Shown here: positions 6,777 to 57,553 of the stretch, one piece after another
Layout: each line of letters begins with the position of its first letter
Numbering within the stretch: position 1 is the stretch's first letter
IMG/VR virus record: IMGVR_UViG_3300029288_006769
Coordinates: 122,367 to 186,366 of that record
Origin: a virus
Length of the DNA stretch: 64,000 bases
Direction: 5' to 3' (one strand)
Notes under the pieces: model-generated
Database searches by the model: none
What the model was told of the DNA's origin: nothing
What the model saw: only the letters and a program-made list of their open reading frames with translations
Position numbers and translations under genes: made by a program

Positions 6777-6782
6777 TTTCTC

Positions 6783-7037: not shown

Positions 7038-7048
7038 CTAAAACCTCC

Positions 7049-7558: not shown

Positions 7559-7624
7559 GATGTTTATTCCTTTTTCTATGTTTCTACGACCCAGTCTAGC
7601 CTATTTGTGTATATAACCTAATGG

Positions 7625-8554: not shown

Positions 8555-8557
8555 ATG

Positions 8558-13782: not shown

Positions 13783-14333
13783 AAAGTTGCGAATTCTAAC
13801 ATTAATTTTTCAATTTCTTCTTTATTTTTCTTGATATTATAGTTAATATCTTGAATTATGCCATTTTTATGCGCATCGATTTCAGATTTACACACACCCG
13901 ACGGACCCATGTGAAACACACCACCTTTTTGACAAGGAATAAGTTTATTTATTTTATCTGAGTAATATTCATTTTGTCCAATATTCTTGAGAAAGTCCCG
14001 CAAATTTTTAACAGCATTTACACTTATATCATAATCATCTACAATGCTGTAGATAAAAGAAAATTTGTCATATAAAATTTTAAATTGAGGGGATAGTACT
14101 ATTTTATTTTTGTGTTTTCTCAATAAAAAGATAATACCCGAATCATAACTATGGTTCCTATGATAATTTTGGTGACATGTTGGACATATCGGTATCAAGT
14201 TTAATTCGTCATTATTGTCTCTATTTCCATCAATGTGGTGAATATCATTTGCAGTTATATTCCCGCAACAAATAGGGCATTTATAATCAAACAATTTAAG
14301 TAACGTGTCTCTTGTTGTATCTGTGTTTTTCAT
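13749..14333 (-). CDS. HNH endonuclease
   Basis: CPICCG...DIHHIDGNRDNN...NLIPICPTCHQNYH. Confidence 0.8.
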   Translation of the reverse strand: MKNTDTTRDTLLKLFDYKCPICCGNITANDIHHIDGNRDNNDELNLIPICPTCHQNYHRNHSYDSGIIFLLRKHKNKIVLSPQFKILYDKFSFIYSIVDDYDISVNAVKNLRDFLKNIGQNEYYSDKINKLIPCQKGGVFHMGPSGVCKSEIDAHKNGIIQDINYNIKKNKEEIEKLMLEFATLCFTEKVRDCL

Positions 14334-14379
14334 AATGTGCTCCTGAGTTTTCGATTATTGTTTGCAAATTAATTTAATA

Positions 14380-15378: not shown

Positions 15379-16112
15379 ATTTGCTCCTTTAACTTTTTTA
15401 AAGTATAAATGTTGACATTCTGAACTACAAATAAATTATAATTTTTGGGAATTTTTTGTTTTCGACATTTAAAATATTCATCAAGCGTCCTGTATTCATA
15501 TCTATATTTTTTACCTCTCCAAATTTCAATTCTTTTTGACAAACTTAAATTCTTGGGATTTGAATAACATTGATGATATTCGATTACGATATTGTTAATT
15601 AAAAAATCTACTTCTATACTATTAACTCTAACGTGACAATTTTCGCCTTCTTTTAAGATAAGACAAAATTCTTTTTCAAGAAAAATCGCGCATTGTTTTT
15701 CAGATTCACTCGAAAACTTTATACCGGCATGCTCAAATTTAGTTTTCGATCTAAAAGACTTTATCGAAACATGACCAGCAAAACAGCGTTGTGCTTTATA
15801 ACGATTTGGGTGAGATTTATAGAATTTTAAATAACATTCTTTATTGCAAAACTTTTTCAAAGAAACTACATGTATTCTTTTGTTTTTTTCAGATAAAAGT
15901 CGTCTAATTGGTTTCTTGCAATGACCGCATTTATACGCTTTAGTTTTTTGTTCGTGCTTTCTAATAGCTTTGCAAGCACTGCAAAAATAACGTTTCTTAT
16001 TTAATGTTTTAAGTATTTTTTTCTTTCTATTTACTGTAATAACTTTCTTAGTTTTGCATCTAAAACAAACAATTTCTGATAAAGGATTTCTTTTCCTATT
16101 TGTTTCAGACAT
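15345..16112 (-). CDS. Cys-rich zinc-finger protein (possible homing-endonuclease-like)
   Basis: multiple CxxC pairs (CFRCKTKK, CSACK, CGHCKK). Confidence 0.3.
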   Translation of the reverse strand: MSETNRKRNPLSEIVCFRCKTKKVITVNRKKKILKTLNKKRYFCSACKAIRKHEQKTKAYKCGHCKKPIRRLLSEKNKRIHVVSLKKFCNKECYLKFYKSHPNRYKAQRCFAGHVSIKSFRSKTKFEHAGIKFSSESEKQCAIFLEKEFCLILKEGENCHVRVNSIEVDFLINNIVIEYHQCYSNPKNLSLSKRIEIWRGKKYRYEYRTLDEYFKCRKQKIPKNYNLFVVQNVNIYTLKKLKEQICQCLKNKSTT

Positions 16113-26519: not shown

Positions 26520-28202
26520 TTAGAATTTTGAAAGTTTCCATGACTGAGCAATTGGTATTCTTCGTCCAAAACCAAATGCTTTCCTATGTAATTTAATACC
26601 TAAAGGAGCCTGCCTGCGTTTGAATTCGGCGTTCTTGATTAGCTGACAGACTCTTTTTACTGCTTCAGGATGTTGATCAGCAATAATTTTGTATTTTTCG
26701 TATTCTGCAGGATCTAACCAGTCGCCTTCAATAAAGAGCTCGAGCAAAGCATCAAGAACAGGATATGGTGGCAAACTGTCGACGTCCTTTTGTCCGGGAG
26801 CCAATTCAGCGGAAGGCGCCTTATCAATGATCGCTTGTGATATTGCTCCCGGGTATAATGTGTTATAATAAGCAGCCAGTTCATAAACTTTCATTTTGGG
26901 TAGATCGGAAATTGGAGAGAGACCGCCGCACATATCCCCATACATAGTACAATATCCGACAGACAATTCGCTCTTATTTCCTGTCGAAAGGACTAAGTAT
27001 CCAAAACGATTCGAGTAAGTCATAAGGATCATGCCACGAATACGAGCTTGCAAATTTTCTTCAGCAATTCCCGTTTTTTCAGGTGTTCCAAAGCATTTGT
27101 TAAATTCTTTGAGAATTGTTTCATAGATTCCCTTAATGGGAAGAGTATGAAAATCTATGCCAAGATTTTTGCAAAGAGCCTCTGAATCTTCATAACTTCC
27201 GGTCGATGAATATTCCGAGGGCATTGTACAACCCATGACTCTTTTAGAGCCAAGAGCTTCTTTTGCAACAGCAGAAACAACAGCGCTGTCTATACCACCA
27301 GATTCTCCTATAGCCACTCCTTTGAAACCACACTTTGTAACATAAGAACGAACACCGCATACTATTTGCTTGAAATAAAATTCGGCATTCGAAGCATACG
27401 GTATATGTTCAATACCACCAGGTGACATGCCATGAGTGTGATAAGCAAGCATTAAAGAATCAATTTCAGATCGTTCCTGAACAAAATCCCCCGACTTGAG
27501 GATTATAGCACCACGTTTGTTTGTGACAAAGCTGTTACCGTCAAAAACAATGTCATCATTACCACCAACCTGATTGACGTAAACAATGGGCATTGCATAT
27601 TGCTTGCTGATCCGCTTTATCATTTCGACTCTTTCTTGATGTTTTCCGACAACAGAAGGAGAGCCGTTGATTGAGATAATGAATTCGACATTTGCATTGA
27701 AAAGATCTTCAACAGGATTTATTGTATAAATTGAATTGTTGTACCACAGATCCTCACAGATAACAATTCCAATACGTATGCCGCGAAATTGAAAAATGCC
27801 CGGTTTTTCTCCCGGTTGAAAATAACGAGACTCATCGAAAATATCATAGGTAGGTAGTAACCTTTTCCTGTAGTTGTATATGACTTCACCTTTATAGCAA
27901 ACTGCAGCCGAATTATAGAGCTTTTTCCCATGGCCTGTATTTTTTTCTACATAGCCGATTATAATTGGAGAATTGATTTCTTTTGTTTGTTCGAGAAACC
28001 ATTTTAATGCTTCGTCTTGATCTGCAAGAAAAGCTGAATAATCGACTAAATCAAGAAGAGGATAGCCAGGGATAGTGAGTTCTGGGAAAACATACATGAA
28101 AACGCCATTGTCAGTTTTTTGCTTTATAAAGTCGATAACTTTTTGAGCATTCCCCATAAAATCACCAACAATCGTGTCGATCTGACATAAGACAATATTC
28201 AT
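26520..28202 (-). CDS. nadE: glutamine-dependent NAD+ synthetase (NadE; CN-hydrolase + NAD synthase domains)
   Basis: 560 aa; PP-loop SGGIDSAV; N-terminal nitrilase-like domain; overall architecture. Confidence 0.85.
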   Translation of the reverse strand: MNIVLCQIDTIVGDFMGNAQKVIDFIKQKTDNGVFMYVFPELTIPGYPLLDLVDYSAFLADQDEALKWFLEQTKEINSPIIIGYVEKNTGHGKKLYNSAAVCYKGEVIYNYRKRLLPTYDIFDESRYFQPGEKPGIFQFRGIRIGIVICEDLWYNNSIYTINPVEDLFNANVEFIISINGSPSVVGKHQERVEMIKRISKQYAMPIVYVNQVGGNDDIVFDGNSFVTNKRGAIILKSGDFVQERSEIDSLMLAYHTHGMSPGGIEHIPYASNAEFYFKQIVCGVRSYVTKCGFKGVAIGESGGIDSAVVSAVAKEALGSKRVMGCTMPSEYSSTGSYEDSEALCKNLGIDFHTLPIKGIYETILKEFNKCFGTPEKTGIAEENLQARIRGMILMTYSNRFGYLVLSTGNKSELSVGYCTMYGDMCGGLSPISDLPKMKVYELAAYYNTLYPGAISQAIIDKAPSAELAPGQKDVDSLPPYPVLDALLELFIEGDWLDPAEYEKYKIIADQHPEAVKRVCQLIKNAEFKRRQAPLGIKLHRKAFGFGRRIPIAQSWKLSKF

Positions 28203-41879: not shown

Positions 41880-42722
41880 TCAATTTTTTGTCTTTTTTTT
41901 GCATCTTGTTATATAAAAATCTAACATATAAGTTTTTATCCATTTGTTGACTTTTTGAGTTTTTATTTTTAAAAGCTTTGAAACCTCACTTACCCAACCA
42001 TTTTTTGAAAAATCTATAGAACTATTCTCAATTATCTTTATTTTCTCAAATTGCTTAAGTAATTGTAATAAAGATCTTATCTTAGATTTCTGCTGTAATT
42101 TAAGTTTTTTAGAATTATCTCTAGCTATTCTTAAAGTTTTGTTTTTAAGCATATGATTTTCAAGAGATTTCTGAACATACTCATATTTATCCAAACTACT
42201 TAACAAATCTAAGAATGAATTGATTTTTTCTTGATTTATTTCGTTATAAGCAATTCTTACGACTTTCCAACCTTTCAATAACAAATGCTTATCTTTCTCT
42301 AAGTCATGTTCAAATCTAGTATTCCCATGCGAAAAATGTGCTGGTCCATCAAGTTCAATAGCAAGTTTTATATTGACAAATGCAAAATCAATAAAATATG
42401 GAAATTCAGCATATTCACTTACAATGTCATATTTTTCGTTTAAGTTAAATTTCAAAATAACTTTGTCTATAAACCATTGCTCTAAAGAACTTGGGATCTG
42501 TTTACTTCTTTTTTCCCAAGCTGTTTTACCTGTCCGCTTTTTAAGATATTCAAATCTTGCTTTTCTAATCTTATTTTTTGTTACAGTTGTGTGTTTAAAA
42601 ATTTCTGGATGTTTCAAGTGCAACAACTTAAAGGCTTCAGATAGAGATCTACATTTATCTCTTAGAGCTATTGTTACTAGATCTTTGGGATAACCTATTT
42701 TTATAATTTCACCAGAAGACAT
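41880..42722 (-). CDS. DUF559/Vsr-like endonuclease-domain protein (homing-endonuclease-like)
   Basis: YFIDFAFVNIKLAIELDG...KGWKVVRI C-terminal restriction-endonuclease-like fold signature. Confidence 0.5.
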   Translation of the reverse strand: MSSGEIIKIGYPKDLVTIALRDKCRSLSEAFKLLHLKHPEIFKHTTVTKNKIRKARFEYLKKRTGKTAWEKRSKQIPSSLEQWFIDKVILKFNLNEKYDIVSEYAEFPYFIDFAFVNIKLAIELDGPAHFSHGNTRFEHDLEKDKHLLLKGWKVVRIAYNEINQEKINSFLDLLSSLDKYEYVQKSLENHMLKNKTLRIARDNSKKLKLQQKSKIRSLLQLLKQFEKIKIIENSSIDFSKNGWVSEVSKLLKIKTQKVNKWIKTYMLDFYITRCKKKTKN

Positions 42723-43075
42723 ACCAGAAGAATATAAATTTCTAACTTCGTCAACTTAAAAAATCTTTTACATTTGACGCACTGATATTTTTCAATACCA
42801 AAAGTATTTGATGTTATTTTTTTTCTAGTACCTATTAAATAAGATTTCTTTAAATTTTTACTTGCATTATGTTTTCTTTTTATATCTTTAATATAAAACA
42901 CAATATTTTTCTTAGAATATCCTTTTTTTATGATTTCTGTCAACAGCAAACCAGACAAATACAAGCTTTTAATTTCTTGTATTTTATTTTTTGACAAAAC
43001 GCAAAATTTTTTGTGTTGTTTAAAACCAGTTAAATTCTTTAGGATTTTACCACATTTATTGCATACAAAACTCAT
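42701..43075 (-). CDS. zinc-finger protein (possibly the N-terminal part of the adjacent endonuclease)
   Basis: CNKCGKILKNLTGFKQHKKFC C2H2-like. Confidence 0.3.
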   Translation of the reverse strand: MSFVCNKCGKILKNLTGFKQHKKFCVLSKNKIQEIKSLYLSGLLLTEIIKKGYSKKNIVFYIKDIKRKHNASKNLKKSYLIGTRKKITSNTFGIEKYQCVKCKRFFKLTKLEIYILLVCLLVKL

Positions 43076-43094
43076 ATTTTTACTCGTTAAAAAA

Positions 43095-43166
43095 CTGGGG
43101 TAGAAGGATTTGCACCTCCGACACCCGGCTCCAAGGGCCAGCGTTCTTCTACTGAACTATACCCCA
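43095..43166 (-). tRNA. tRNA-Gln (anticodon read as UUG; loop CCUUGGA)
   Basis: cloverleaf read by eye: U1:A72 acceptor TGGGGTA/TACCCCA, T-loop, anticodon stem CTGGC/GCCGG. Confidence 0.6.
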
Positions 43167-43180
43167 ATAAATTTCAAACT

Positions 43181-43254
43181 AGCCACAAAGAGACTTGAAC
43201 TCTTAACCTACAGTTTAGGAAACTGTGACTCTATCCAATTGAGCTATGTGGCTA
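43181..43254 (-). tRNA. tRNA-Arg(CCU)
   Basis: acceptor AGCCACA/TGTGGCT, anticodon arm ACAGT-TTCCTAA-ACTGT. Confidence 0.7.
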
Positions 43255-43258
43255 AAAA

Positions 43259-43335
43259 TGGTCGGAACGAGCAGAGTTGAACTGCTGACCCCCTGCACCC
43301 CATGCAGGTGCGCTACCAGGCTGCGCCACGTTCCG
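43259..43335 (-). tRNA. tRNA-Pro(GGG)
   Basis: CGGAACG...GGCGCAGCCTGGTAGCGC D-arm, loop AUGGGGU, encoded CCA. Confidence 0.7.
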
Positions 43336-43353
43336 TTGTTCAAAGAACTTAAA

Positions 43354-43428
43354 TCGGAGTGAGTGGATTTGAACCACCGGCCTTGTGATCCCGGATCACA
43401 CGTTCTAACCAGGCTGAACTACACTCCG
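43354..43428 (-). tRNA. tRNA-Pro(CGG)
   Basis: acceptor CGGAGTG/CACTCCG, anticodon arm TGTGA-TCCGGGA-TCACA. Confidence 0.65.
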
Positions 43429-43432
43429 TATT

Positions 43433-43507
43433 CTGGGGTGAGAAGACTTGAACTTCTAACTTCTGGTTTCAGAGACCAGCGTTCTAAACCAATTGAACTA
43501 CACCCCA
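43433..43507 (-). tRNA. tRNA-Gln(CUG)
   Basis: acceptor TGGGGTG/CACCCCA, anticodon arm CTGGT-CTCTGAA-ACCAG. Confidence 0.7.
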
Positions 43508-43513
43508 ATAAAA

Positions 43514-43591
43514 TGGTCGGGATGAGAGGATTTGAACCTCCGACACCTGCGTCCCAGGCGCAGTGCTCTAACCAGACTGAGCTACATCCCG
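43514..43591 (-). tRNA. tRNA-Pro(UGG)
   Basis: acceptor CGGGATG/CATCCCG, arm CTGCG-CCTGGGA-CGCAG, encoded CCA. Confidence 0.7.
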
Positions 43592-45625: not shown

Positions 45626-46295
45626 TTAAAGTATTACATTTTTTCTCTCCTTTTTTGTTTTAGAAATTTTCTCCCTTACTTCTTTTCTCTTGGAAACATT
45701 GTTTTCACCACTTATTAAAATTTTTCTTTGTGGATTATTTTTCCAAAAATTTAAGACTGCTTTTGAAATATTTTGTTTTTGTTCTATTGTTCTTTTTCTT
45801 CCTCTTAAAATAAATTTAGGTTTGCCTTTTTGTTTTTTAGACGCATGCGACATTTTTTGTCTAGTAATTTCTGTCGGTTTTCTACCAGACATTGCAAGAC
45901 TCACTTTTTTCTTGCGCTGTTCTGTCCAAGGAGATTTTATAAAACAATCTTTTTTCCCATTCGCAGTATCTTCTTTATACTTACTTCTAATTTCTTCTCT
46001 TCGCGGATTATTTGAAAAACAATCGCCCCCATCACCACCTTTTGTTATATCCAACAGGTGCTCTTGAATTAAGAAACTCTATCCAATATTTTTCTCTTTC
46101 ATTTAGCTGATCTACTTGACATTCTTCTATAATATCTTTTCGAAAATTTTCTTGGCCATATTTTATTATTGCTTTTCGTATAAGTATACCTGATCCATAA
46201 TATTGAATATTATACTTTAATTCTTTCCCGATATAAATTTTGCCATTCAAAAGATTTGTAATTTTATAAATTACGCTTAAACTTGCCATAATCAT
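45626..46295 (-). pseudogene. GIY-YIG homing endonuclease split by a frameshift (catalytic part 46032-46295, NUMOD3-like part 45626-46054)
   Basis: VIYKITNLLNGKIYIGK...YYGSG...GYN ends at a stop; the overlapping frame continues ...KGGDGGD plus NUMOD3 repeats; the intact paralog at 17613-18392 reads GYNLTEGGEGGD across this point. Confidence 0.6.
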
Positions 46296-47311
46296 CTTTT
46301 TCTAAGTGTTCGTTCATAATCTTCAAAACGTATTTTTGCGATTTTTGAACGCTGTTCTGTTCGAACTACAACTCCTTCAGGTTTTCCCAATGCATCATTT
46401 TCAAGCAAAGCGTTTGACATGCCCGGGAGCAGATTTTTCAACCAATCATAAGTCCCTTGAATGGTTTGTGGTGGACATGCTCCAATAATAGAAGGCACTA
46501 TTAGACATCTTATATCTGCTGCTACACTTGCAATTGTTCTGACTCCAACAAAATTTTGTCCCCCATTATCTCTCCAAGCAGCTATTTTTTCTATGGGCAA
46601 ATCAAGTAAATCTTCAAACTCTTTTGCTTCCATCATTATGACATCAAACAACCTGAAACCAAGTTTCCCTGTTTTTGTATAATTTTTTGCCGTTCCTGCT
46701 TTACCCCCATAAACTTCCCCAAATAATACAAAAACAGATTGTTCAAGTTGGTCCCAGTAAATTCTTCTTGCATTGTCAGCCACAGTTTGAATTGTATCAA
46801 CAATATCTAATGTAGGATTATGAATCCAATCTCCAAAACCATAAAGAAGTTCTTCACGAGAACCAATTAGATATGTCCCTTTAGGAAACAAAATAATACG
46901 AGCATTTGTACCATCAATTTTCTCAGAAAGAAAAATTTCGTCATCTGCTGAAAAAGATACAAGAACTTCTTCTTTCAAAGAACCTCTATCCCCAAGAGCA
47001 TGATATGTAAGAATACTTGGGTATTTTGTAGCCGAATTGATTTTTTTCAAATCAAAAGCTCGCATATTCACACAATATTTACCATAATCAGGATTATGTT
47101 TCTTCATAATGTCGTATGTTGCCGGTCTTACTTTCCAGCCTACATTGTCGCAATTACCACAAGCTATACTCATGCTCATAGCAGCTACATCACCTGGCAT
47201 AATTTCTTCGCTATTACAATTAGAACAAGTCATTACTACAAATGCTGACGGTGGACAAATCTTACCCTCATGCTTTATACCACAAAAAATACAATGCTTA
47301 GCTTCACTCAT
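46292..47311 (-). CDS. ATP-dependent RNA ligase (Rnl2-like nucleotidyltransferase) with N-terminal zinc ribbon
   Basis: motif I KIDGTN, motif III FGEVYG, motif V EGVVVR; N-terminal CxxC...CxxC. Confidence 0.55.
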   Translation of the reverse strand: MSEAKHCIFCGIKHEGKICPPSAFVVMTCSNCNSEEIMPGDVAAMSMSIACGNCDNVGWKVRPATYDIMKKHNPDYGKYCVNMRAFDLKKINSATKYPSILTYHALGDRGSLKEEVLVSFSADDEIFLSEKIDGTNARIILFPKGTYLIGSREELLYGFGDWIHNPTLDIVDTIQTVADNARRIYWDQLEQSVFVLFGEVYGGKAGTAKNYTKTGKLGFRLFDVIMMEAKEFEDLLDLPIEKIAAWRDNGGQNFVGVRTIASVAADIRCLIVPSIIGACPPQTIQGTYDWLKNLLPGMSNALLENDALGKPEGVVVRTEQRSKIAKIRFEDYERTLRKR

Positions 47312-48077
47312 TCTCTTTATCCCCTGCAGCCATAGCCTTTATGACTTCATTCAACACCGGTGCTTGACATTCTCCTGGTTTTGTAGCAGTAAGCTCTACT
47401 CCTGCATTTTCTGCAAAAAACATATCACCCTGATTGAAACGTAGAGCATCAGCTTGCTTGCACTTCTCTATCCATTCTTTAAAACCATTTTCATAATCAT
47501 CGGTTAGACTGGAAAGCCATTTGAAAAATTCTTCCAAAGTCGAAGGAAGTACGCCCACCCAATCAGAACCATAGTCATAAGGGCCCTGTGTTTGCTCATC
47601 CCAATAATCTATATGTTCTGATTCTCCATTTTCAAGATAACGATCTATATAATGTTTTCCTGTATGATCACTACCAGAAAACCAAACTTCGTCATCTTTG
47701 GGCTCGCGTCCAAGTGATTTAAGAACTTCAGTCACTTTATCTTTATAGCCTGCACAACCTATGCCAGCAAAACGATGATAAACAGGTTTTTCAGGTTCTT
47801 TTTTATAATCAGTACAACTTGCATAAATAAAAATGCCGTTTTGAGGACCTCTGATTGATACAATATCAAATCCTGCAAGTTGTACATCTCCTGAATTTAT
47901 TGCTGCAATTGTTGGCTTTGTAAAATCATGTTCTTCATGCCACATTTCTTCGCTCGAAACATAAGCCCAATTTTTATAAATTGAAATTGAAGATTTTAAT
48001 TTGTAATGATTGAACGTGCCATTACAAGCTTGAGCGTCAGAATTAAAAGCTAAACAATCCCAATTTGAGAGTGCCAT
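47304..48077 (-). CDS. hypothetical protein
   Basis: ORF. Confidence 0.3.
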   Translation of the reverse strand: MALSNWDCLAFNSDAQACNGTFNHYKLKSSISIYKNWAYVSSEEMWHEEHDFTKPTIAAINSGDVQLAGFDIVSIRGPQNGIFIYASCTDYKKEPEKPVYHRFAGIGCAGYKDKVTEVLKSLGREPKDDEVWFSGSDHTGKHYIDRYLENGESEHIDYWDEQTQGPYDYGSDWVGVLPSTLEEFFKWLSSLTDDYENGFKEWIEKCKQADALRFNQGDMFFAENAGVELTATKPGECQAPVLNEVIKAMAAGDKENE

Positions 48078-48098: not shown

Positions 48099-48923
48099 TC
48101 AATCCACGAATTTTACATTTGCCCTTGCACGTGCTTTGGATTCAGTATTGACAAGTACTTTATGCCATACGCTTCCAAGATTCACAGTAGCATGTTCTTC
48201 ATGCGAAATTTTGCCCTTGGCATACACATTGGGATCAGCCATCATAGAACGGTAACGCTTTGCACTATCAGGTTGCTCTTTTAAGAGCTTTTGATAATCT
48301 TTCACTTCAATAACGTTACTCCCAAGAACATAAACTTGTCTTCCACCTACTCTGTACAAAAATTCAGCATAGTGAAAGTGAGAACCTCCACCTCTCATCG
48401 GTTCGTTCTTCCAGACTTTTGTCAAGTTCCCTTTGGGCGGCTCAAAATTCGGTTGAGGAACAAACATGAATTCGCCTTGACGGTGAATTTTCTTTCCCGA
48501 CTTCAAAAGACGGTGTCTCTTATGCGCATTCTTTTTGTTGACACCCTCTTTCGATTCAATGTCAATAAGTTCTTTGGGTTTTAAAGCTTGTTTGGCACCA
48601 ATTACCGTAGTAACTCTTGAAGATTCAGGGATAGCACAAGTGAACCAGTGACGTTCATCATGTCCACAAAGAAATTTCGACTTGATTTCGCTTGTCTTAT
48701 CGCCTTTTCTGTTGATAACAGGTACTTTTGTCATCAAAAGCAAATGTCTGTCAGCTTTTTGAGCATCAAGAATCAACATTTCTATTTCTTTTGTGACTTG
48801 AAGCTCAAAATACTCGCCTTCACTGTCTCTTCTGACATCAATAGAAAAACCATCTCTACGTGGCTCAATGACTTTTACTCGAGCCCCGATTGCTTCGAAT
48901 TTCTTTTCGATTGTTGTTGTCAT
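48099..48923 (-). CDS. hypothetical protein
   Basis: ORF. Confidence 0.3.
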   Translation of the reverse strand: MTTTIEKKFEAIGARVKVIEPRRDGFSIDVRRDSEGEYFELQVTKEIEMLILDAQKADRHLLLMTKVPVINRKGDKTSEIKSKFLCGHDERHWFTCAIPESSRVTTVIGAKQALKPKELIDIESKEGVNKKNAHKRHRLLKSGKKIHRQGEFMFVPQPNFEPPKGNLTKVWKNEPMRGGGSHFHYAEFLYRVGGRQVYVLGSNVIEVKDYQKLLKEQPDSAKRYRSMMADPNVYAKGKISHEEHATVNLGSVWHKVLVNTESKARARANVKFVD

Positions 48924-49369
48924 ATAACCTCTAAATAAAGCGTGCTTCCAATAAATTTTTCAAGAACTTTACCATGATCAAAAGCAAGATCAGGTAAATT
49001 ATTTATATCAAAAAATTCAAGTTTCCTTGCATCATCTTTAGCTTTAGGCTCACCAGTGCATCTATGTACATAATAAACATGATCTATCACATGTCCTCTT
49101 GGATCTCTTTTGGGATCAGAATTGACCATGAATAATTCAAGATGTCTGGGCTCCACAACTAAATTTGTTTCTTCATAAAACTCCCTTGCTCCTGCAACCT
49201 CCAAACTTTCTTGATCACAGTTCAAAAATCCACCCGGTAATGCCCACATACCAACAAAGGGTTCATGATCTCTCTGAATCAACAAAATTTTATTTGTTTT
49301 GTTTGTAGTCATGTAAATCAAACTAGCAGTCGAAGCTGCATTTTTAAAATCATGAATATCAGTTGGCAT
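48920..49369 (-). CDS. NUDIX hydrolase
   Basis: Nudix box GGFLNCDQESLEVAGAREFYEETN. Confidence 0.8.
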   Translation of the reverse strand: MPTDIHDFKNAASTASLIYMTTNKTNKILLIQRDHEPFVGMWALPGGFLNCDQESLEVAGAREFYEETNLVVEPRHLELFMVNSDPKRDPRGHVIDHVYYVHRCTGEPKAKDDARKLEFFDINNLPDLAFDHGKVLEKFIGSTLYLEVI

Positions 49370-50137: not shown

Positions 50138-50692
50138 CTAGTCCCGATCGAGACACACGTTCCAATAGATGTAGTCAACCCAAGTCTCGTGCGGTATCTC
50201 AGCATCGAGCCTCCTGACAACCTGAATTGGTGCGGATTTGCTAAGACGAGGAATATAAGGTTTCCTTATCAAATCCCTTTTATAGTTCTTAACATGCTTG
50301 CAACCTTTTTGCCCATTGCATCTTATGCAGCTCACTACAATGTTGTCCCACCAAGTCTTACCGCCGTCTTGCCGTGGAATTACATGGTCAAACGTGAAAT
50401 TTGAAAGAGTAACCTTCTTACCGCAATACATGCAACATCCAGCATCTCTGAGATAAACATTTTTCCTTGTAAAAGGAAGCACGTTTGTAAAATGCTTTGG
50501 TACATAGTCAGAGTCAATGCACTTGATCACTGAAGGTATCGGCATTACAAAATTTACTCCACAGAATTTCTGCTCATAGTTTTCTAAAGCAATAGCTCTC
50601 TGTGTTGAGACTAATGCAATAGCCCTACGAGTTGAGACAATTGAAACTGGGATCATACCGATATTGAGCATTAAAGTTTGCATAATGGACAC
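50138..50692 (-). CDS. HNH endonuclease
   Basis: CMYCGKK...FDHVIPRQDGGKTWWDNIVVSCIRCN. Confidence 0.75.
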   Translation of the reverse strand: MSIMQTLMLNIGMIPVSIVSTRRAIALVSTQRAIALENYEQKFCGVNFVMPIPSVIKCIDSDYVPKHFTNVLPFTRKNVYLRDAGCCMYCGKKVTLSNFTFDHVIPRQDGGKTWWDNIVVSCIRCNGQKGCKHVKNYKRDLIRKPYIPRLSKSAPIQVVRRLDAEIPHETWVDYIYWNVCLDRD

Positions 50693-50761: not shown

Positions 50762-51637
50762 TTAAATGCCCAAGGCCGGGGTCGAACCGACATGAGACTC
50801 AGTCTCGGCAGGTCTTAAGCCTGCAGTGTCTCCCAATTTCACCACTTGGGCTCGAAAATTATCTGAATCAAAAGTAAAATATTGCTTTAAATTATGGCCT
50901 TCTGTAATTAATTTTATATAGTTGTCAATTGGAATATTTCTTCTTCTAAAAAACTTAATAATCTCAAGCAATGTTTCATAAAAAATTACTCTAATCACAT
51001 AACCATTATTTTTAAAAGCTTCTACAACTTTATCAACATGAGACCCTCGAAAACCTTTTATTTCATATAGCTTGCCTTCAATATCAAAATCATTTATTCT
51101 TGTCGATCCATTATACTGCACTCTTATATTCTCATAATCAAATTTAATGTGTTTATAAACTAGATAAAGAGCAAAAATAAACTCAAAAGTGCTTCTCAAA
51201 AGAACTTTTTTGTTATTAAAGATAAAATAAGAATATTTTCCTCTACCAATTCCTTTTGCAGGTGTCAACAAACCTTGAGCATATAATTTTTTTCTAGTTT
51301 CTGATTGTTTTATATGTGCAGGATGATTTTTAGTTTTTGATCTTTCTATGCTTGCTTTGACAAAAGGGTTATTAAAACCTATTTTTTTTAATCTTATTGA
51401 ATTCGCTTCACTTATACGTCGTATCGCTTCTGATGTTTGCTTTGTTAACCCTTTTGCCCATGCTCTTTTTTTGTCCAATTGTTTTGTCGGAATTCTTCCT
51501 TCTTTATGTGCTTTCTTAATTGCTTCAGAATTTTTCTTCCTTATTTTTGGACAAGAGTTCCACGAGTTTGAACAACACCATTTCTTATTACTTAACTGAA
51601 ACTTTGCTTCTTGTTCGCATCCATATTCGCACTGCAT
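50762..51637 (-). CDS. K/R-rich repeat protein, homing-endonuclease-like candidate
   Basis: NUMOD-like basic repeats. The ORF's last ~30 codons run through tRNA-Leu(UAA), so the true 3' end is uncertain. Confidence 0.3.
   Translation of the reverse strand: MQCEYGCEQEAKFQLSNKKWCCSNSWNSCPKIRKKNSEAIKKAHKEGRIPTKQLDKKRAWAKGLTKQTSEAIRRISEANSIRLKKIGFNNPFVKASIERSKTKNHPAHIKQSETRKKLYAQGLLTPAKGIGRGKYSYFIFNNKKVLLRSTFEFIFALYLVYKHIKFDYENIRVQYNGSTRINDFDIEGKLYEIKGFRGSHVDKVVEAFKNNGYVIRVIFYETLLEIIKFFRRRNIPIDNYIKLITEGHNLKQYFTFDSDNFRAQVVKLGDTAGLRPAETESHVGSTPALGI
50767..50851 (-). tRNA. tRNA-Leu(UAA), type II
   Basis: acceptor GCCCAAG/CTTGGGC, arm GCAGG-CTTAAGA-CCTGC, long variable arm. Confidence 0.7.
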
Positions 51638-51717
51638 GCTTACTCCTTTTATTAGAAGTAAGCATATAAAAACTTTAATAATTAAGACTGTTGTGTATGC
51701 CTTACATAAGCTTAAAA

Positions 51718-52386
51718 TTACCCTTTGCGTTGGTGTGCTAATTTCCTAAAACTAAATTTGTCGTACCCGTGCGATTCAGCTTTCAACTTGTCTGAAATCG
51801 GCCATGGCTCTTTTTCTTTATTTGTCAAAACTCCACTTATAAACTGCTGTACCTTTTGAAACATAGTAAATGGGTCAATGATTTTTTCAAAATTAAAGTT
51901 TTTAAGACAAGAGTCTTTTTCGTTAAACATTTGTCTATTGCATTTTTCTTGTTGCGTAATAATCGGCGTTCTATACTTTATATGCTCATTAAACAACTTT
52001 TCAGAAATTTCAATTTTAAAATCTGTCTCAATGTACTTGTTCCGTTTAATCAATTCTTCATAATATTTTGCGTTAGCAGTTCTAATAGCTTGTATAAATG
52101 ATTCTACTTCATAGTAATACTTATCTTCATAATACAAACCTTTATAAACAGTCCCACAAACAGAAACTTTAAACTTTCTTACAAGTTCACGATCATAATA
52201 AAAAAATCGTTCAAATGCAGATTTATCATTAAAAATGTCTTCTTTAATTTCTTCTGTTTTACGTTTATAAACAATGGACTTATCTATACCAAATGTCTTG
52301 ATGGTATCATAATAATCATGAAATTTCGAAACAATCAACATGATGATTTCCTTAACAAATAGCGGGGGAGAGAATCGAACTCCCAC
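51718..52386 (-). CDS. hypothetical protein
   Basis: ORF. Confidence 0.3.
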   Translation of the reverse strand: MGVRFSPPLFVKEIIMLIVSKFHDYYDTIKTFGIDKSIVYKRKTEEIKEDIFNDKSAFERFFYYDRELVRKFKVSVCGTVYKGLYYEDKYYYEVESFIQAIRTANAKYYEELIKRNKYIETDFKIEISEKLFNEHIKYRTPIITQQEKCNRQMFNEKDSCLKNFNFEKIIDPFTMFQKVQQFISGVLTNKEKEPWPISDKLKAESHGYDKFSFRKLAHQRKG

Positions 52387-52431
52387 TCTTTGGGTTATGA
52401 GCCCAATATCTTGCCATTAGAAGACCCCGCA
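52360..52431 (-). tRNA. initiator-type tRNA-Met(CAU)
   Basis: anticodon arm TTGGG-CTCATAA-CCCAA (three G:C pairs before the loop); acceptor TGCGGGG/CCCCGCT with an unpaired 1:72; close to E. coli tRNA-fMet in the stem and loop. Confidence 0.65.
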
Positions 52432-53327
52432 AATTTCAAAGTATCTGACAATTTCAATAAGCACTTATCAATGTCTTTTTTTACTTCTGAAGCAGTAAAA
52501 CGTAACACTTCCCAACCATTTGATTTAGACCAGTTATCTCGCTTCTGATCTTTTTGTTTTACTACATCAAGTTCATGACTCTTTCCATCAATCTCTACAT
52601 CAACTTTTATATCAACAAAAGCAATGTCATATTCATAAATTCCAATTTGATATCTTGCTGTCCATCCAGATATATTATTTTTAATTAAAGCTTGTTTAAA
52701 TAATTCTTCGACATAAGAAAGTTTTGAACTGTGATATAAACGATAAGGTAATCTATCAGGGTGTTCGCTAAAAAACTTAATTGCATGTTTTGAAATTTTT
52801 TGTTTTGCTTGTTCTGACAAATGTACTTTCTTTTTACAATTTTTCAAAGCGATTCTAATAAGTTCGACACCAAATAACTTTCTAAGCTCTTCTTTTGATT
52901 CTCCAAGTTCCCATCTGTTTTTGATATTCTGTATAATATTTGGATAATTTTTGATTAAATATGCTGCACATTTTTTCTTGTGCTTTGAAAAATTCCCTTT
53001 ATTGAAATCTCTACCACAAACACACTGTACTTGCTCTCTAAATCCATAAAAACCTATTTTTGTCGATTTCTTTCTTTTGCAACTTGCATGAGAACATTTT
53101 TGACTTTCACTTATTGTTCTTTTTGGAGTGTTCCTTAGAGCATAAACTATAATTTTTTTAGAAATTAGTCCTTCTTGTCGAATTTCATTTATAGACATAC
53201 CAGAATTGTATTTTTTAACAATCTCATCATAACTATCAATTGACAAATTACATCTTGAATTATGTTGAGTACAACCTGATTTTGTATTGAAACTCCTATT
53301 ACATTTTTTGCAAAAATACATATTCAA
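52395..53327 (-). CDS. zinc-finger + DUF559/Vsr-like endonuclease domain protein (homing-endonuclease-like)
   Basis: N-terminal CKKCNRSF...H; C-terminal YEYDIAFVDIKVDVEIDGKSH...NGWEVLRF. Confidence 0.5.
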   Translation of the reverse strand: MNMYFCKKCNRSFNTKSGCTQHNSRCNLSIDSYDEIVKKYNSGMSINEIRQEGLISKKIIVYALRNTPKRTISESQKCSHASCKRKKSTKIGFYGFREQVQCVCGRDFNKGNFSKHKKKCAAYLIKNYPNIIQNIKNRWELGESKEELRKLFGVELIRIALKNCKKKVHLSEQAKQKISKHAIKFFSEHPDRLPYRLYHSSKLSYVEELFKQALIKNNISGWTARYQIGIYEYDIAFVDIKVDVEIDGKSHELDVVKQKDQKRDNWSKSNGWEVLRFTASEVKKDIDKCLLKLSDTLKFAGSSNGKILGS

Positions 53328-53329
53328 AA

Positions 53330-53659
53330 TTACTCAAAACGGTCACTGACATTCTTCCAGTCCTTACCATCCGTTCTTACTTTTCTTCTGCCCCACTTTT
53401 CAGCTTCCTTTGCTTGCAATCTAACAAGCAGCTTAGCTTCAGGCATTACTTGTATCATTCTTCGAGCCTCAGAAAATGAAACGCACAAATTTGCTTCAAC
53501 CAATCTCTTAGGCTCTATTTTTTCCATTTGACACCAACCATAAGATTTTCTTTCAAAAGCTATTCCACATTTTTCACACACTCTTATTTTATCGTCCTCG
53601 GCAATTTGATCACATGCCCACCCGCACCGACATGTACAAGCATCACCTAACCAACTCAT
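53330..53659 (-). CDS. Cys-rich hypothetical protein
   Basis: ORF. Confidence 0.25.
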   Translation of the reverse strand: MSWLGDACTCRCGWACDQIAEDDKIRVCEKCGIAFERKSYGWCQMEKIEPKRLVEANLCVSFSEARRMIQVMPEAKLLVRLQAKEAEKWGRRKVRTDGKDWKNVSDRFE

Positions 53660-53898
53660 TTTTTACATTTCTGACATAAGTTATCAATATGATTTGTCAT
53701 TTGCACGCATTTTTCACAAAACTCAAGTTCCATTTCTTTAATCTCGAGCACCCAACGCCATGCATATCTACATGTGCAATCAATACAATATAACCCGTTA
53801 GGGTCATTTGGCCACACAGGGCACAACTTTGCGTCATCTTTTTCCTGAGCAACATCGCATTGCGCTATTGCTTGTTCTATTTGCTCTTTTGTTTTCAT
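53656..53898 (-). CDS. Cys-rich hypothetical protein
   Basis: ORF. Confidence 0.25.
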   Translation of the reverse strand: MKTKEQIEQAIAQCDVAQEKDDAKLCPVWPNDPNGLYCIDCTCRYAWRWVLEIKEMELEFCEKCVQMTNHIDNLCQKCKK

Positions 53899-54593
53899 TT
53901 TTTCACGCCAAAAACACTATAATTGCCAAATGTTGGACGTTTAAAATATACGGTCATATCGGGTTCTAAACCCGTTTTCCTTACATATATTTCAAATTTA
54001 CTGTCAAGCAAACTATGCAGCTCTTTTTCAGTATAATGCTTGACATGATATTTTACTATTTTATGATCAGGGTATCTTTCACCATTTGGAGTAGTAAAGC
54101 ACCAGATACCATTGGGCTTCAAAACTCTATAAACTTCGCTAATTACTTTTTCAACCTCTTCAACATGTTCAAATGTTTCTACCGAAACAACAGTATCAAA
54201 AAGACTGTCAATTTCAGGGATTTGCTTGATATCCCCTACATCATATTTTATATTTAAAGCATTGTAATGTTCTTTTGCAAAATCAATACTTTCTTTATCG
54301 ATGTCGTAACCATGTACTCTTAATGCTCTACTGGCAAGCATTTTTGTGCCCATGCCACAACCACAAGCAATATCGAGCACTAATTTGTTTTCAACTGCAA
54401 CTAGAAATTCACGATACATTAAATCATGGATGTCTATATTGCCCTGGCCAGCTTTACCTGCGTGTTCTGGGATTATTCGTTCGCCGGTATATTGCATTGT
54501 TCCCTCGGATCTATAACAATTCCACGTAGCGCATTTGCACAAATCGTACAAACTCCTGGAACAAGTGCAGAAGCTATACCTTGTTGATTGCAT
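53895..54593 (-). CDS. class I SAM-dependent methyltransferase
   Basis: motif I VLDIACGCGMG, LKPNGIWCFTTPN. Confidence 0.6.
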   Translation of the reverse strand: MQSTRYSFCTCSRSLYDLCKCATWNCYRSEGTMQYTGERIIPEHAGKAGQGNIDIHDLMYREFLVAVENKLVLDIACGCGMGTKMLASRALRVHGYDIDKESIDFAKEHYNALNIKYDVGDIKQIPEIDSLFDTVVSVETFEHVEEVEKVISEVYRVLKPNGIWCFTTPNGERYPDHKIVKYHVKHYTEKELHSLLDSKFEIYVRKTGLEPDMTVYFKRPTFGNYSVFGVKK

Positions 54594-54797
54594 TGAGAAC
54601 AGAGAATTTCCATATTACCATTCCTTAAATTTGGGATCGGAACGTATTTCTTCTACAAATTCTTTAAGATGTTCACAAGGCGGTTCTTCTTTTCCAATTC
54701 TCCAAGCAGCACCACAACTGGAACATATAATTACGTTTGGAACAAGATCCCATTTTCTTATTGTTTTTTCAGCATTCAAAATAAAAGGCTCCAAAAA

Positions 54798-54881
54798 CGG
54801 AGGTACCAGGAATTGAACCTGGGGAGCTTTTCAGCTTTGCTTGTTTTCGAAACAAGGCCCTCGACCAACCGGACTACCTCC
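54798..54881 (-). tRNA. tRNA-Ser(CGA), type II
   Basis: acceptor GGAGGTA/TACCTCC, arm CTTGT-TTCGAAA-ACAAG, long variable arm. Confidence 0.7.
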
Positions 54882-54903
54882 ATATATAGTTTCATTAACC
54901 TTA

Positions 54904-55230
54904 TTATTCGTCTATGCTAGACTGTGTCGTAGTTAACATTAGTTTGCATATATCCTGTATTAAAAGTTCTTCTTTTTCTCTAGCCTTTTCATAATGCTCA
55001 TGTTTAAAACTATAAATCACTTGTGCCATTGCTATATGGAGCACTTCGTGTACAAGATAATCTTCTGGTTCTTTTTCGTCAGAATACCACGTATAAACTG
55101 TTGCTTTCTTTGTTTTTACGTTCTTGCAACAGTGACCCTTATATTGACTATCAGAATCATACTCGATTTTCCAATCAGATAAAATTCTGATCTTCTTTAC
55201 TATATTTGCTAATCTGTCTTCAGCTTTCAT
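54904..55230 (-). CDS. small HExxH zinc-metallopeptidase-like protein (SprT-like)
   Basis: HEVLHIAM motif. Confidence 0.35.
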   Translation of the reverse strand: MKAEDRLANIVKKIRILSDWKIEYDSDSQYKGHCCKNVKTKKATVYTWYSDEKEPEDYLVHEVLHIAMAQVIYSFKHEHYEKAREKEELLIQDICKLMLTTTQSSIDE

Positions 55231-55652
55231 TTCGTCAAGACCACTCTAACAACTTTATCAATTACGCCATTGGACACAAGTTTAAATTGCGGCATCCCCA
55301 TTTCTTCTGCAAAAGGGTTACTATAAAAATTCATAAAGGAATTCTCATTAAAGAAATGGCAATGCTCTATGCACTCAACAGCTGATTCACTATGCCAATA
55401 AGGCACTTCTATTAAAAACACGCCTTTATTTTCAAGTAAGTCATAGATATCTTTGATAATCTGTTTCAAAACTTTTGATGATTCGATATGTTCGAATACA
55501 TGGCTCGCTTCAATATAACTAAATTTTCCTTCCAATTTAGGGAGCCCGTCATTCAAGTCCCACACTACATCAGCCCATTTGGGAACTATATCGACTCTAA
55601 TTTTATCAGGTTCTGGTTTGCTATATGGTCCTTCACCCAACATTAAGCGCAT
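55227..55652 (-). CDS. methyltransferase-like protein
   Basis: C-terminal class I MTase-like segments (KGVFLIEVP). Confidence 0.3.
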   Translation of the reverse strand: MRLMLGEGPYSKPEPDKIRVDIVPKWADVVWDLNDGLPKLEGKFSYIEASHVFEHIESSKVLKQIIKDIYDLLENKGVFLIEVPYWHSESAVECIEHCHFFNENSFMNFYSNPFAEEMGMPQFKLVSNGVIDKVVRVVLTK

Positions 55653-55672
55653 ATTTTTACTCCAAATTTAAG

Positions 55673-55746
55673 AGACCCAGGGCGGATTTGAACCGACCGT
55701 AATGCTAGTTTTGCAGACTAGTGCCTTACCGCTTGGCTACTGGGTC
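55673..55746 (-). tRNA. tRNA-Cys(GCA)
   Basis: acceptor GACCCAG/CTGGGTC, arm CTAGT-CTGCAAA-ACTAG. Confidence 0.6.
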
Positions 55747-55902
55747 ATGATATATTGTGTAATTCTTCAGCACATTCATAATAAACAGCTCGTTCGACAT
55801 CAGTAATACAGCTAGACTGTGCTTTCTCAGTCCACTTCCTCACCAAATCATGGCAAGCATTTTTCAAAATTTGCAATTTATCTTTATCTGTCGACAAGTC
55901 TA

Positions 55903-56259
55903 TCATATTCGTTCATATACAAATTTGAATTTGTTTTGCTTATCTAATTTTTCTTCAGCTAATAAATAATCTTCTGGAAGAGACGCATTATTTATTGTCC
56001 CGTGTTTGCCAATAAACAAAATTTCTTTTAAAGTCGAATTAAGGTAAACATGAGCACCAAATAATGTTCCTATCAACTCACCATATCCAAGCTTAGAAAA
56101 AGTATCACTATCTGTATACGGATCAAAACAATCAAGTAGATGATAGAGCAATTCTTGATGAATCTCTGCATTTATGCAAATAGATTCTACACGCTCATCT
56201 CCTATCTCGATTCGTGCAATGCCATCAACAATTAATTTTCGTAATTTTTCTTTTTTCAT
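55903..56259 (-). CDS. hypothetical protein
   Basis: ORF. Confidence 0.3.
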   Translation of the reverse strand: MKKEKLRKLIVDGIARIEIGDERVESICINAEIHQELLYHLLDCFDPYTDSDTFSKLGYGELIGTLFGAHVYLNSTLKEILFIGKHGTINNASLPEDYLLAEEKLDKQNKFKFVYERI

Positions 56260-56267
56260 AATTCAAA

Positions 56268-56340
56268 AGCCGATGAAGGGATTCGAACCCCCGACCTGCA
56301 CATTACGAATGTATTGCTCTACCAACTGAGCTACATCGGC
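56268..56340 (-). tRNA. tRNA-Thr(CGU)
   Basis: acceptor GCCGATG/CATCGGC, loop TTCGTAA. Confidence 0.65.
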
Positions 56341-56346
56341 AAAAAA

Positions 56347-56431
56347 TGGCGGAGGAAGAGGGACTCGAACCCCCAAGCCCTTTCGGGCGGCAGTTTTCAA
56401 GACTGCTCGTCTACCATTGACGTATTCCTCC
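56347..56431 (-). tRNA. tRNA-Ser(UGA), type II
   Basis: acceptor GGAGGAA/TTCCTCC, arm GCAGT-CTTGAAA-ACTGC, long variable arm, encoded CCA. Confidence 0.7.
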
Positions 56432-56652
56432 AAAATTTACTTCTTTGCATACCTTTCGCTTTTTTCAGCATAAGGTAAACTATTTAATTCTACATCTAAA
56501 TCAAACAAATGCCAGTTTTTACAACAAAAACATTCCTTTGATTTTGCCTTTGTGCAATCTAAACAGGTAAAAAGGCCGTTCCGTCTCTTATCTAATTCAG
56601 TCATAAGAACCTCCCGTTTACCAGTAGATTCTTATATACTTTTTAGAAAAAT

Positions 56653-56725
56653 TGTTAGCGAAAGGACTTGAACCTTCAACCGACAGATTATGATTCTGTT
56701 GCTCTACCAATTAAGCTACGCTAAC
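56653..56725 (-). tRNA. tRNA with CAU anticodon (elongator Met or Ile2/lysidine type)
   Basis: acceptor GTTAGCG/CGCTAAC, arm ACAGA-ATCATAA-TCTGT. Confidence 0.65.
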
Positions 56726-57011
56726 ATGACACTAAAAAACGCATTTTTGCGTGTTTATCCTCACTCTCAAGTTTTTTATTCTCGACAATCATAAACATAT
56801 CTAACAAGGGTTCATATTGAACTTTCAATTGTATTCTATCATTACAATCTATATAAACAGGTTTCTTAAAACTTTCTTGATAATGTCGTAAATTCACGGG
56901 GTCTCCTCCCCAATCTAATTTAAGTCTATAGGGAGAATAATTAAACTGATGAGGATCGCCTTGGAGAACCTTTTTTACTTCATCAGATGACATATAACAT
57001 CGAAAACTCAT
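56721..57011 (-). CDS. hypothetical protein
   Basis: ORF; start moved to the internal Met because the upstream codons lie in the tRNA-like element. Confidence 0.3.
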   Translation of the reverse strand: MSFRCYMSSDEVKKVLQGDPHQFNYSPYRLKLDWGGDPVNLRHYQESFKKPVYIDCNDRIQLKVQYEPLLDMFMIVENKKLESEDKHAKMRFLVSC

Positions 57012-57017
57012 AAATTT

Positions 57018-57250
57018 TGCCCTTGGTGGGATTTGAACCCACATAACATTGATTAGAGTTCCTCTTTGGAAACGCGATTCCTGCCGCTGTTTACAAACCC
57101 TCCAAAGCTGTCGCCAGATCTTTGGCAGCGTATCAGTTCTGCCGCAACCATGGAACTCGCCTAAGAACAGTTTCCCGTTCGGTCAATGCCCTCCGTTAAG
57201 AGTCACGGTCCGTTTTTCCGAGTGCACTTTCCATTTTATGCTACAAGGGC
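57018..57250 (-). ncRNA. tRNA-like RNA with ~160-nt internal insert (intron-containing tRNA or tmRNA-like candidate)
   Basis: 5' GCCCTTG pairs with 3' CAAGGGC-A; canonical T-arm GTGGG-TTCAAAT-CCCAC; D-arm-like GCAT-AAAATGGAAA-GTGC; the rest does not fold as a normal cloverleaf. Confidence 0.4.
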
Positions 57251-57467
57251 CTAAAATTTAAAAATTGGTTGCATCTGAGTTATCAATGCTGTTTTTCTTT
57301 TTGACAGTTCTTGAGACTGTTGCCTGAACCAGTTCGGCTAACCCGGCACCCAATTGACATAAGCTCAGCCACAATCAACTGAGTGCCGGGTCTTGGATTT
57401 GAACCAAGATAAAAATGTAAGCACTAATTGTTAAAAGATACAACCAATTAATTTCAAAGATCAAATT

Positions 57468-57553
57468 TGGCCAGAAAGGGACTTGAACCCTTACGGACCT
57501 CACGGTCCCTCGGATTTTGAGTCCGAGTTGTCTCCCGATTCCAGCATCTGGCC
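57468..57553 (-). tRNA. tRNA-Leu(CAA), type II
   Basis: acceptor GGCCAGA/TCTGGCC, arm TCGGA-CTCAAAA-TCCGA, long variable arm. Confidence 0.7.

Follow-up and report, generated by a model that had tools for sequence, protein, structure and literature searches.

Among the transfer RNA (tRNA) genes of a huge phage lies a gene for an RNA ligase, which raises the question of what kind of ligase it encodes and which broken nucleic acid the enzyme would seal. The gene is located at 46292..47311 on the minus strand of a 64,000-nucleotide stretch of DNA (positions 122,367 to 186,366 of the IMG/VR virus record IMGVR_UViG_3300029288_006769), the whole of which was analysed and is referred to below as the window. 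A first-pass annotation, made from the letters of the window, had read the product as an Rnl2-family ligase behind an N-terminal zinc ribbon, possibly engaged in tRNA repair. The reading favoured here, which we hold to be probable on balance, is that of an active, ATP-dependent polynucleotide ligase of the PF09414 superfamily, belonging to a divergent clade that has the catalytic nucleotidyltransferase (NTase) domain alone and stands outside Rnl1 to Rnl6, which would reseal broken RNA in the course of infection, with tRNA as its likeliest target.

The ligase gene and its catalytic motifs

The gene and the parts of its catalytic region, in amino acid (aa) and window coordinates, are the following.

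46292..47311 (-): ligase gene, a complete open reading frame (ORF), 339 aa plus stop
46295..47056 (-): ligase core, aa 86-339, equal to the whole length of the stand-alone ~255-aa proteins of the family
47000..47053 (-): conserved leader DLKKINSATKYPSILTYH, aa 87-104, preceding motif I, a signature of the ligase family
46904-46921 (-): motif I, KIDGTN, aa 131-136; K131 aligns with K35 of T4 Rnl2
46850-46864 (-): motif Ia, GSREE, aa 150-154; R152 aligns with R55 of T4 Rnl2
46706-46723 (-): motif III, FGEVYG, aa 197-202, with E199
46640-46657 (-): motif IIIa, FRLFDV, aa 219-224, with F222 and D223
46361-46378 (-): motif IV, EGVVVR, aa 312-317, with E312
46328-46345 (-): motif V, KIAKIR, aa 323-328, with K326 and R328 invariant

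The three motifs named in the first-pass annotation (KIDGTN, FGEVYG and EGVVVR) were all located in the ORF together with the remaining ligase motifs, and the K.DG.N pattern has a single occurrence across the six reading frames of the window. In the Pfam check which that annotation had proposed, the RNA_ligase model PF09414 matched residues 125-327 of the 339-aa ORF with 53.4 bits (E 4.4e-14), well above its gathering cutoff of 27 bits; with motifs I, Ia, III, IIIa, IV and V all present, the protein belongs to this superfamily and its assignment as an RNA ligase was correct. The ORF also matched PHROG 548 ("RNA ligase", E 1.4e-11). The six catalytic motifs are invariant in an alignment of 22 homologues (alignment A1), and motifs I, Ia, III and IIIa line up with the corresponding residues of T4 Rnl2, K131 being the predicted AMP-accepting lysine. 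A large protein database yielded 1867 homologues (E<=1e-3), the best of them at E 8e-204 and the closest 87% identical. Taken together, the motifs, the PF09414 and PHROG matches and the homologues establish that the gene is real and conserved, and 46292..47311 probably encodes an active, ATP-dependent enzyme of the RNA-ligase superfamily.

Most members of the family are ~240-280 aa long and ~45-53% identical to the core (aa 86-339), and they come from Planctomycetes (Gimesia), cyanobacteria (Calothrix), Myxococcota, other metagenome-assembled genomes and phages. The leader that precedes motif I is common to the ligase family, with the consensus DLxKxNSxTKYPSIxTYH, and residue 86 of the window protein is a Met at the point where the short homologues begin. 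The same point is where the core begins at one related locus (L008), whose ligase is ~89% identical to that of the window. There, within 6121-7124, a short deletion shifts the frame and divides the gene into a 75-aa ORF for the N-terminal module (described below) and a 257-aa core (P0003) whose first residue is the Met corresponding to M86. The gene may truly be split there, may have begun to decay, or may have been misassembled. This division of the gene, and the crowding of the region with homing endonucleases, would suit a decaying or non-functional remnant, a reading that is scarcely credible for the window itself, where the ORF is intact and the catalytic residues and eight metal ligands are kept in homologues down to 54% identity.

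Placement outside the six RNA ligase families

Flanking domains are what define the families of RNA ligases (PMC7261155), and by this standard the label "Rnl2-family" given to the protein at first was wrong. Rnl2 enzymes (T4 Rnl2, PDB 1S68 and 2HVQ; trypanosome REL1) carry a signature C-terminal domain after the catalytic domain, whereas the phage protein stops 11 residues past motif V and therefore lacks it; in motif I it has a D where Rnl2 has an H. The NCBIfam model TIGR02307 (Rnl2) gave no match to the ligase at E<=1, while the control, T4 Rnl2, scored 467.3 bits against a cutoff of 197, and hhalign of the ligase against T4 Rnl2 reached a probability of 21.7% and covered motifs I to IIIa alone. 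With the absent C-terminal domain, the unmatched model, the low hhalign value and the placement in the literature of a close relative (AYD81305.1, see below) outside Rnl2, it is very unlikely that the protein genuinely belongs with Rnl2 and closes nicks in duplex RNA in the manner of T4 Rnl2.

A sequence search of the PDB with the single protein and with the 22-sequence profile returned no significant ligase (the best being MthRnl, E 0.21), and because no solved structure was matched by sequence, the classification was made through comparison of folds. An AlphaFold2 model built from alignment A1 (predicted local distance difference test, pLDDT, 90.1; predicted template modelling score, pTM, 0.84) gave the figures listed below, in each case over ~186 aligned residues, which correspond to the catalytic domain only.

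NgrRnl (Rnl5): 16.3
T4 Rnl2, catalytic domain: 15.9
Full T4 Rnl2: 14.9
TbREL1: 14.8
MthRnl (Rnl3): 13.1
Fungal Trl1: 10.9
T4 Rnl1: 10.2
DNA ligases: at most 11.3
Capping enzymes: at most 9.0

The predicted structure is thus equally near to Rnl5 and to Rnl2. Foldseek with the same model placed RNA ligases at ~1e-7 and DNA ligases at 1e-5 to 1e-3. That the best homology might be to a DNA ligase or an mRNA capping enzyme had been named at the outset as the outcome that would overturn the annotation; the fold comparison and Foldseek both rank RNA ligases higher. The arrangement of DNA ligases (catalytic plus OB domain; PF01068) was not found in the protein, and neither was that of the mRNA capping guanylyltransferases (catalytic plus OB domain), which are not its closest fold match.

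The same holds for Rnl5, in which an N-terminal OB fold is fused to a C-terminal catalytic domain, as in NgrRnl (PDB 5COT) and Deinococcus DraRnl (PMC7261155); in place of the OB fold the phage ligase has a small Cys/His module of three strands and two helices that is without a PDB neighbour. Sequence identity to Rnl5 amounts to just 14%, and the NCBIfam model TIGR02306 (DraRnl) was not matched at E<=1. Rnl5 enzymes seal nicks in which RNA forms the 3'-OH strand, and Rnl5-like sealing of nicks in RNA-containing duplexes is the strongest rival to the favoured reading. In its general form, this alternative holds that the enzyme seals nicks in DNA or RNA:DNA duplexes in phage replication or repair and does not act in tRNA repair. 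It fits with the radiation sensitivity that loss of DraRnl is reported to cause in Deinococcus (PMC5397189), and with the absence of any other K-x-D-G motif I, and of any DNA ligase candidate, among window ORFs of at least 150 aa. However, the ligase lacks the OB domain that is present in all DNA ligases (PMC7261155), it sits in a region of tRNA and RNA-modification genes away from the replication cluster at 188-16112, and a DNA ligase may well be encoded outside the window, given that contigs of relatives reach 427 kb. We consider the nick-sealing alternative unlikely.

The nearest relatives in culture are "RNA ligase" genes from two Streptomyces phages, JustBecause and Kela, at 40.9% identity, and from Nodularia phages, at 34%. 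JustBecause gp136 (AYD81305.1), which is 40.9% identical over aa 88-336 (E 4e-45), has been cited as a rare divergent phage ligase outside both Rnl1 and Rnl2 (Iyer et al. 2021, PMC7824862). It resembles the ligase of the window in consisting of the catalytic domain alone (250 aa) and in lying just after tRNA genes, with a Ro-like gene adjoining, and differs in having no N-terminal zinc module and in belonging to another phage lineage with another host. The similarity extends over the full length of the core and the domain content is the same, and the window ligase is, as judged from its sequence, a member of this divergent clade of the NTase domain alone, outside Rnl1 to Rnl6. A further likeness is to the Yasminevirus homologue of C12orf29/RLIG1 (PDB 9C6L), likewise a short (242 residues) viral protein and a 5'-to-3' RNA ligase, for which tRNA has been proposed as the substrate (PMC11494293).

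The N-terminal Cys/His module

The part of the protein that precedes the core contains the following features.

47057..47311 (-): predicted zinc module, aa 1-85, with invariant ligands, predicted to form three strands and two helices
47255..47293 (-): knuckle-like segment C7-x2-C10-x3-H14-x4-C19
47150..47227 (-): paired CxxC knuckles, C29-x2-C32 ... C51-x2-C54

The residues C7, C10, H14, C19, C29, C32, C51 and C54 are invariant in all ten long homologues (alignment A2). They make up three CxxC knuckles at a 22-residue spacing plus the H14/C19 pair, eight putative ligands which would probably form two zinc sites. The Cys-rich segment that the first-pass annotation saw is therefore real, while its name for it, a zinc ribbon, is only loosely right; comparison of the predicted fold of the module with solved structures gave no neighbour.

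This extension is found in only about ten ligase homologues (P0001, P0002, P0004-P0010), all from metagenomic contigs related to the window, and the other homologues, ~240-280 aa long, cover just the C-terminal three-quarters of the query among the matches listed. When a profile of the module was run against 1.84 billion representative proteins, 40 matches were obtained (E<=1e-3), most of them stand-alone proteins of 70-88 aa; a few carry the module as the C-terminal part of a longer protein (137-275 aa), and the fusion to a ligase is one cluster. Inspection by eye of the partner domains suggested a NADAR-like domain in P0128 and coiled-coil-like segments in P0134, P0137 and P0140. Because the matches are mostly stand-alone and the ligase fusion is a single cluster, the module is, going by these matches, an independent and mobile unit carried mostly by phages, whose fusion to the ligase is confined to one lineage. 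The idea that stand-alone module genes are neighbours of the short ligases was rejected, as the sole context examined, that of a stand-alone member among small genes on a 47-kb phage-like contig (L011/L012), has no ligase nearby.

In its place at the N-terminus, the 85-aa module would supply binding of the substrate or of a partner, an accessory function for which Rnl2 uses its C-terminal domain and Rnl5 its N-terminal OB domain. More generally, it may be a two-zinc adaptor for RNA or partner targeting that phages reuse on other enzymes. A more far-reaching proposal, which we advance as a tentative possibility, is that the ~255-aa NTase-only proteins are a seventh class of ATP-dependent RNA ligase, carrying out all three steps with no accessory domain of the Rnl1-6 type, and that a lineage of huge phages captured an undescribed two-zinc module, otherwise a stand-alone ~80-aa phage protein, by which the ligase would be guided to one RNA in particular, for instance a broken tRNA.

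Proposed RNA repair in a tRNA-rich setting

By the chemistry expected of the enzyme, K131 in motif I would attack ATP to form ligase-AMP, the AMP would then be passed to a 5'-phosphate end, and a 3'-OH would attack the adenylylated end and seal the break, and from this classic pathway of the superfamily it follows that 3'-OH and 5'-PO4 ends would be needed. During infection the ligase would in this manner reseal broken RNA, tRNA being the favoured target by gene context. The tRNA-rich setting noted at first was confirmed, with 25 tRNA genes in the window, all on the ligase's strand.

43094-43591 (-): block of six tRNA genes, downstream of the ligase
50767-62223 (-): nineteen tRNA genes, upstream of the ligase, with HNH endonuclease, DUF559 endonuclease and methyltransferase genes between them

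Similar settings recur in relatives. At three related loci (L001, L002, L003) the ligase likewise lies between tRNA blocks; at another (L021) it lies within an array of 30 tRNAs, with a tRNA gene close on either side; and in JustBecause (L013) four tRNA genes are followed by the ligase and directly by a Ro-like gene, so that three distinct lineages of phages have ligases of the family within their tRNA arrays. A Ro-like gene also lies ~3 kb from the ligase of L022, and Thg1-like genes occur near the ligase in L001 and L003 and ~2 kb away in L034. At L008, where the NUDIX hydrolase gene and the 274-aa gene of the window are missing, their position upstream of the ligase is occupied (2885-4959) by two genes, one for a 299-aa Pnkp of the T4 type with AAA_33 and HAD_PNKP domains and, after it, one for another PF09414 ligase, 338 aa long, with the motifs KYPRTYHL, KMDGEN and EGYVIR and, by eye, an HNH-like N-terminus; the locus appears to be a site at which RNA-repair cassettes are swapped. 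Given the tRNA arrays, the Ro-like and Thg1-like neighbours and the Pnkp and ligase of L008, RNA repair is likely and tRNA is a plausible target. Such a role agrees with the published view of jumbo phages, whose toolkit against tRNA-cleaving host nucleases comprises ligases, PNK-HAD, RlaP, a CCA-adding enzyme, Thg1 and ROT/TROVE alongside tRNA arrays (PMC7824862). Another parallel is the tRNA repair pathway of T4 Pnkp and Rnl1, which shares with the present case a phage-encoded ligase for 3'-OH and 5'-PO4 ends (here by expected chemistry) and a heavy investment in tRNAs, and in L008 also a T4-type Pnkp, encoded ~2.3 kb upstream of the ligase.

The embedding of the ligase in tRNA arrays in three lineages could be read in another way, namely that the enzyme works on transcripts of the phage itself, for example to mature, join or circularise RNAs of the tRNA array, and not on damage inflicted by the host. 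The Thg1-like, methyltransferase and CCA-adding genes near the ligases of relatives are also maturation enzymes and suit this alternative. Yet neither ARAGORN nor Rfam detected tRNAs in the window that are split, permuted or interrupted by an intron, and tRNA genes are far from most family members, and we regard action on the phage's own transcripts as improbable.

It has to be noted that several observations weigh against repair of broken tRNA as the function. The statement of the first-pass annotation that no Pnkp was recognisable near the ligase holds throughout the window, and the search for Pnkp-like and Hen1-like partners that it had called for found neither in the window. No polynucleotide kinase, 3'-phosphatase, cyclic phosphodiesterase or Hen1 is encoded there, which is the chief weakness of the repair reading, and because there is no end-healing enzyme among its genes, the 2',3'-cyclic phosphate and 5'-OH ends left by classical anticodon nucleases could not be sealed with them. 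That the Pnkp of L008 is paired with another ligase suggests a different substrate, distinct or complementary, for ligases of the window type. Across the family, 19 of the 24 viral loci with members have no tRNA within 8 kb, and a Pfam scan of 150 ORFs around the 24 viral members revealed no enriched partner, with no family in more than three ORFs and Thg1, a head domain of the poly(A)-polymerase/CCA type and RlaP occurring once each; the bacterial members checked (Gimesia, Calothrix) are solitary genes without repair partners. As to the enzyme itself, no literature was found on the biochemistry of any clade member, and metal binding and RNA or partner binding by the module are properties that we infer. 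The 5'-adenylylation step of T4 Rnl2 depends on its C-terminal domain, and given that need, 5'-adenylylation by an enzyme without such a domain is left unexplained. Of the tRNA repair originally suggested, then, the plausibility stands, on the strength of the tRNA arrays and of the Ro-like, Thg1-like and Pnkp links in relatives, while the window supplies no end-healing enzyme and most members are solitary.

Candidate healing partners in the window were considered gene by gene. Only two ORFs of the window have a Walker-A motif, a NadR-like AAA_28 kinase and an AAA ATPase. The former, a P-loop ORF at 188-736, was rejected as an RNA 5'-kinase, since it is AAA_28/NadR-like and more likely to serve NAD salvage. 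The ORF at 10633-11595, which matches PHROG 415 ("polynucleotide kinase", E 7.6e-15), was rejected as a Pnkp, as it has only the HAD phosphatase part and no P-loop; it has no PDB relative, and its neighbours, the genes for dCMP deaminase, DNA polymerase, UDG and ThyX, make up a cluster of dNTP metabolism. The Pnkp of L008 (searched by tblastn) and its second ligase have no match in the window. The co-encoded 5'-kinase/3'-phosphatase that marks T4-type repair is accordingly not found there, and neither is the Hen1 methyltransferase partner of the bacterial Pnkp/Hen1 system: two methyltransferases, at 53895-54593 (best 25 of 55 matches) and 7625-8554 (all 20 matches), matched generic class I models only, with no Hen1.

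The genes that flank the ligase are the following.

47304..48077 (-): upstream gene, 257 aa, overlapping the start of the ligase
48920..49369 (-): NUDIX hydrolase, upstream of the ligase also in L001, L002, L003 and L009
45388..45612 (-): small basic protein, 74 aa, Trp/Tyr-rich, found downstream of the ligase, at ~50% identity, in L001-L004 and L009

The ATG of the ligase shares 8 nucleotides with the stop of the upstream gene, and its stop shares 4 nucleotides with the ATG of the downstream GIY-YIG gene. The 257-aa gene and the 274-aa gene, which lie between the NUDIX gene and the ligase, matched no Pfam, PHROG, NCBIfam or PDB entry. The family of the 257-aa protein includes 73 uncharacterised homologues, and since its gene is directly upstream of the ligase in the closest relatives alone, two distant members checked not being near a ligase, it is possibly a lineage-specific partner that the ligase does not require. 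Both genes were rejected as healing enzymes, having no family match, with the distant 257-aa members away from ligases. The 74-aa basic protein, which matched no known family, might be a partner of the ligase. A role of the NUDIX protein as an RNA 5'-pyrophosphohydrolase partner is not supported, as it is most like the ADP-ribose pyrophosphatase domain of NadM-Nudix, every match being below cutoff. The order methyltransferase, HNH, NUDIX, variable insert, ligase and small basic protein of ~75 aa is shared by L001, L002, L003 and L009. The last of these (GCA_028717785.1, JAQUND010000048.1), whose ligase is the closest database relative at 87% identity, bears the name "Candidatus Nanoarchaeia archaeon" in its deposition; the contig shows synteny to the window (NUDIX, 274-aa gene, 255-aa gene, ligase) and is probably a phage contig misbinned into an archaeal genome.

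Just downstream of the ligase, a GIY-YIG homing endonuclease gene at 45626-46295 (-) is frameshifted near 46030-46054, its catalytic part (46032-46295, 87 aa) and likely DNA-binding part (45626-46054) lying in different frames; L001-L003 have no GIY-YIG gene at that spot. Three DUF559-type and two HNH endonuclease genes lie among the tRNA genes (41880-43075, 50138-50692, 52395-53327, 59768-60526 and 61480-62085, all (-)), which suggests that the tRNA array is heavily colonised by homing-type endonucleases. One tRNA-Lys(UUU) gene, at 60921-61009 (-), measures 89 nucleotides, and an additional stem-loop is predicted in its variable region, which is unusual for tRNA-Lys; it is next to a copy of normal length (60839-60910, 72 nucleotides); L002 has an equal pair of 89 and 72 nucleotides. 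As anticodon nucleases classically target tRNA-Lys(UUU), the structurally altered copy could be an evasion device. The JustBecause locus (7555-7640 and 9749-11413) has, besides the Ro-like gene by the ligase, a "tRNA-OTHER" ~1.3 kb upstream of the ligase, which ARAGORN reports as tRNA-Pyl(cta) and which might be a tRNA-like Y RNA partner of Ro and not a decoding tRNA.

The phage is uncultured, the GC content of the window is 30-44%, and its DnaE-type polymerase has only ~32% identity to that of any cultured phage. A set of NAD-related genes on the minus strand, namely the NadR-like AAA_28 kinase, a 560-aa NAD synthetase (26520-28202, PHROG 36784) and the NUDIX gene, suggests phage-encoded NAD salvage. 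A 624-aa ORF at 20199-22073 (-), in a stretch of higher GC content (to 44%), has a weak Pfam Pkinase match (25.5 bits, below cutoff).

RNA ligases that jumbo phages encode next to tRNA arrays are already interpreted as a counter-defence against host nucleases that cleave tRNA. The novelty lies in the kind of enzyme, from a large bacterial and phage clade in which the catalytic domain stands alone and which falls outside all six RNA ligase families defined by structure, and in the architecture, in which a small predicted zinc module with no solved structural relative is fused to it. Biochemical study of the clade would reveal how RNA ends are recognised and adenylylated without the usual accessory domain, and minimal RNA ligases serve well as laboratory reagents. 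Its characterisation would also test whether the multiple ligases of phages each handle different RNA breaks.

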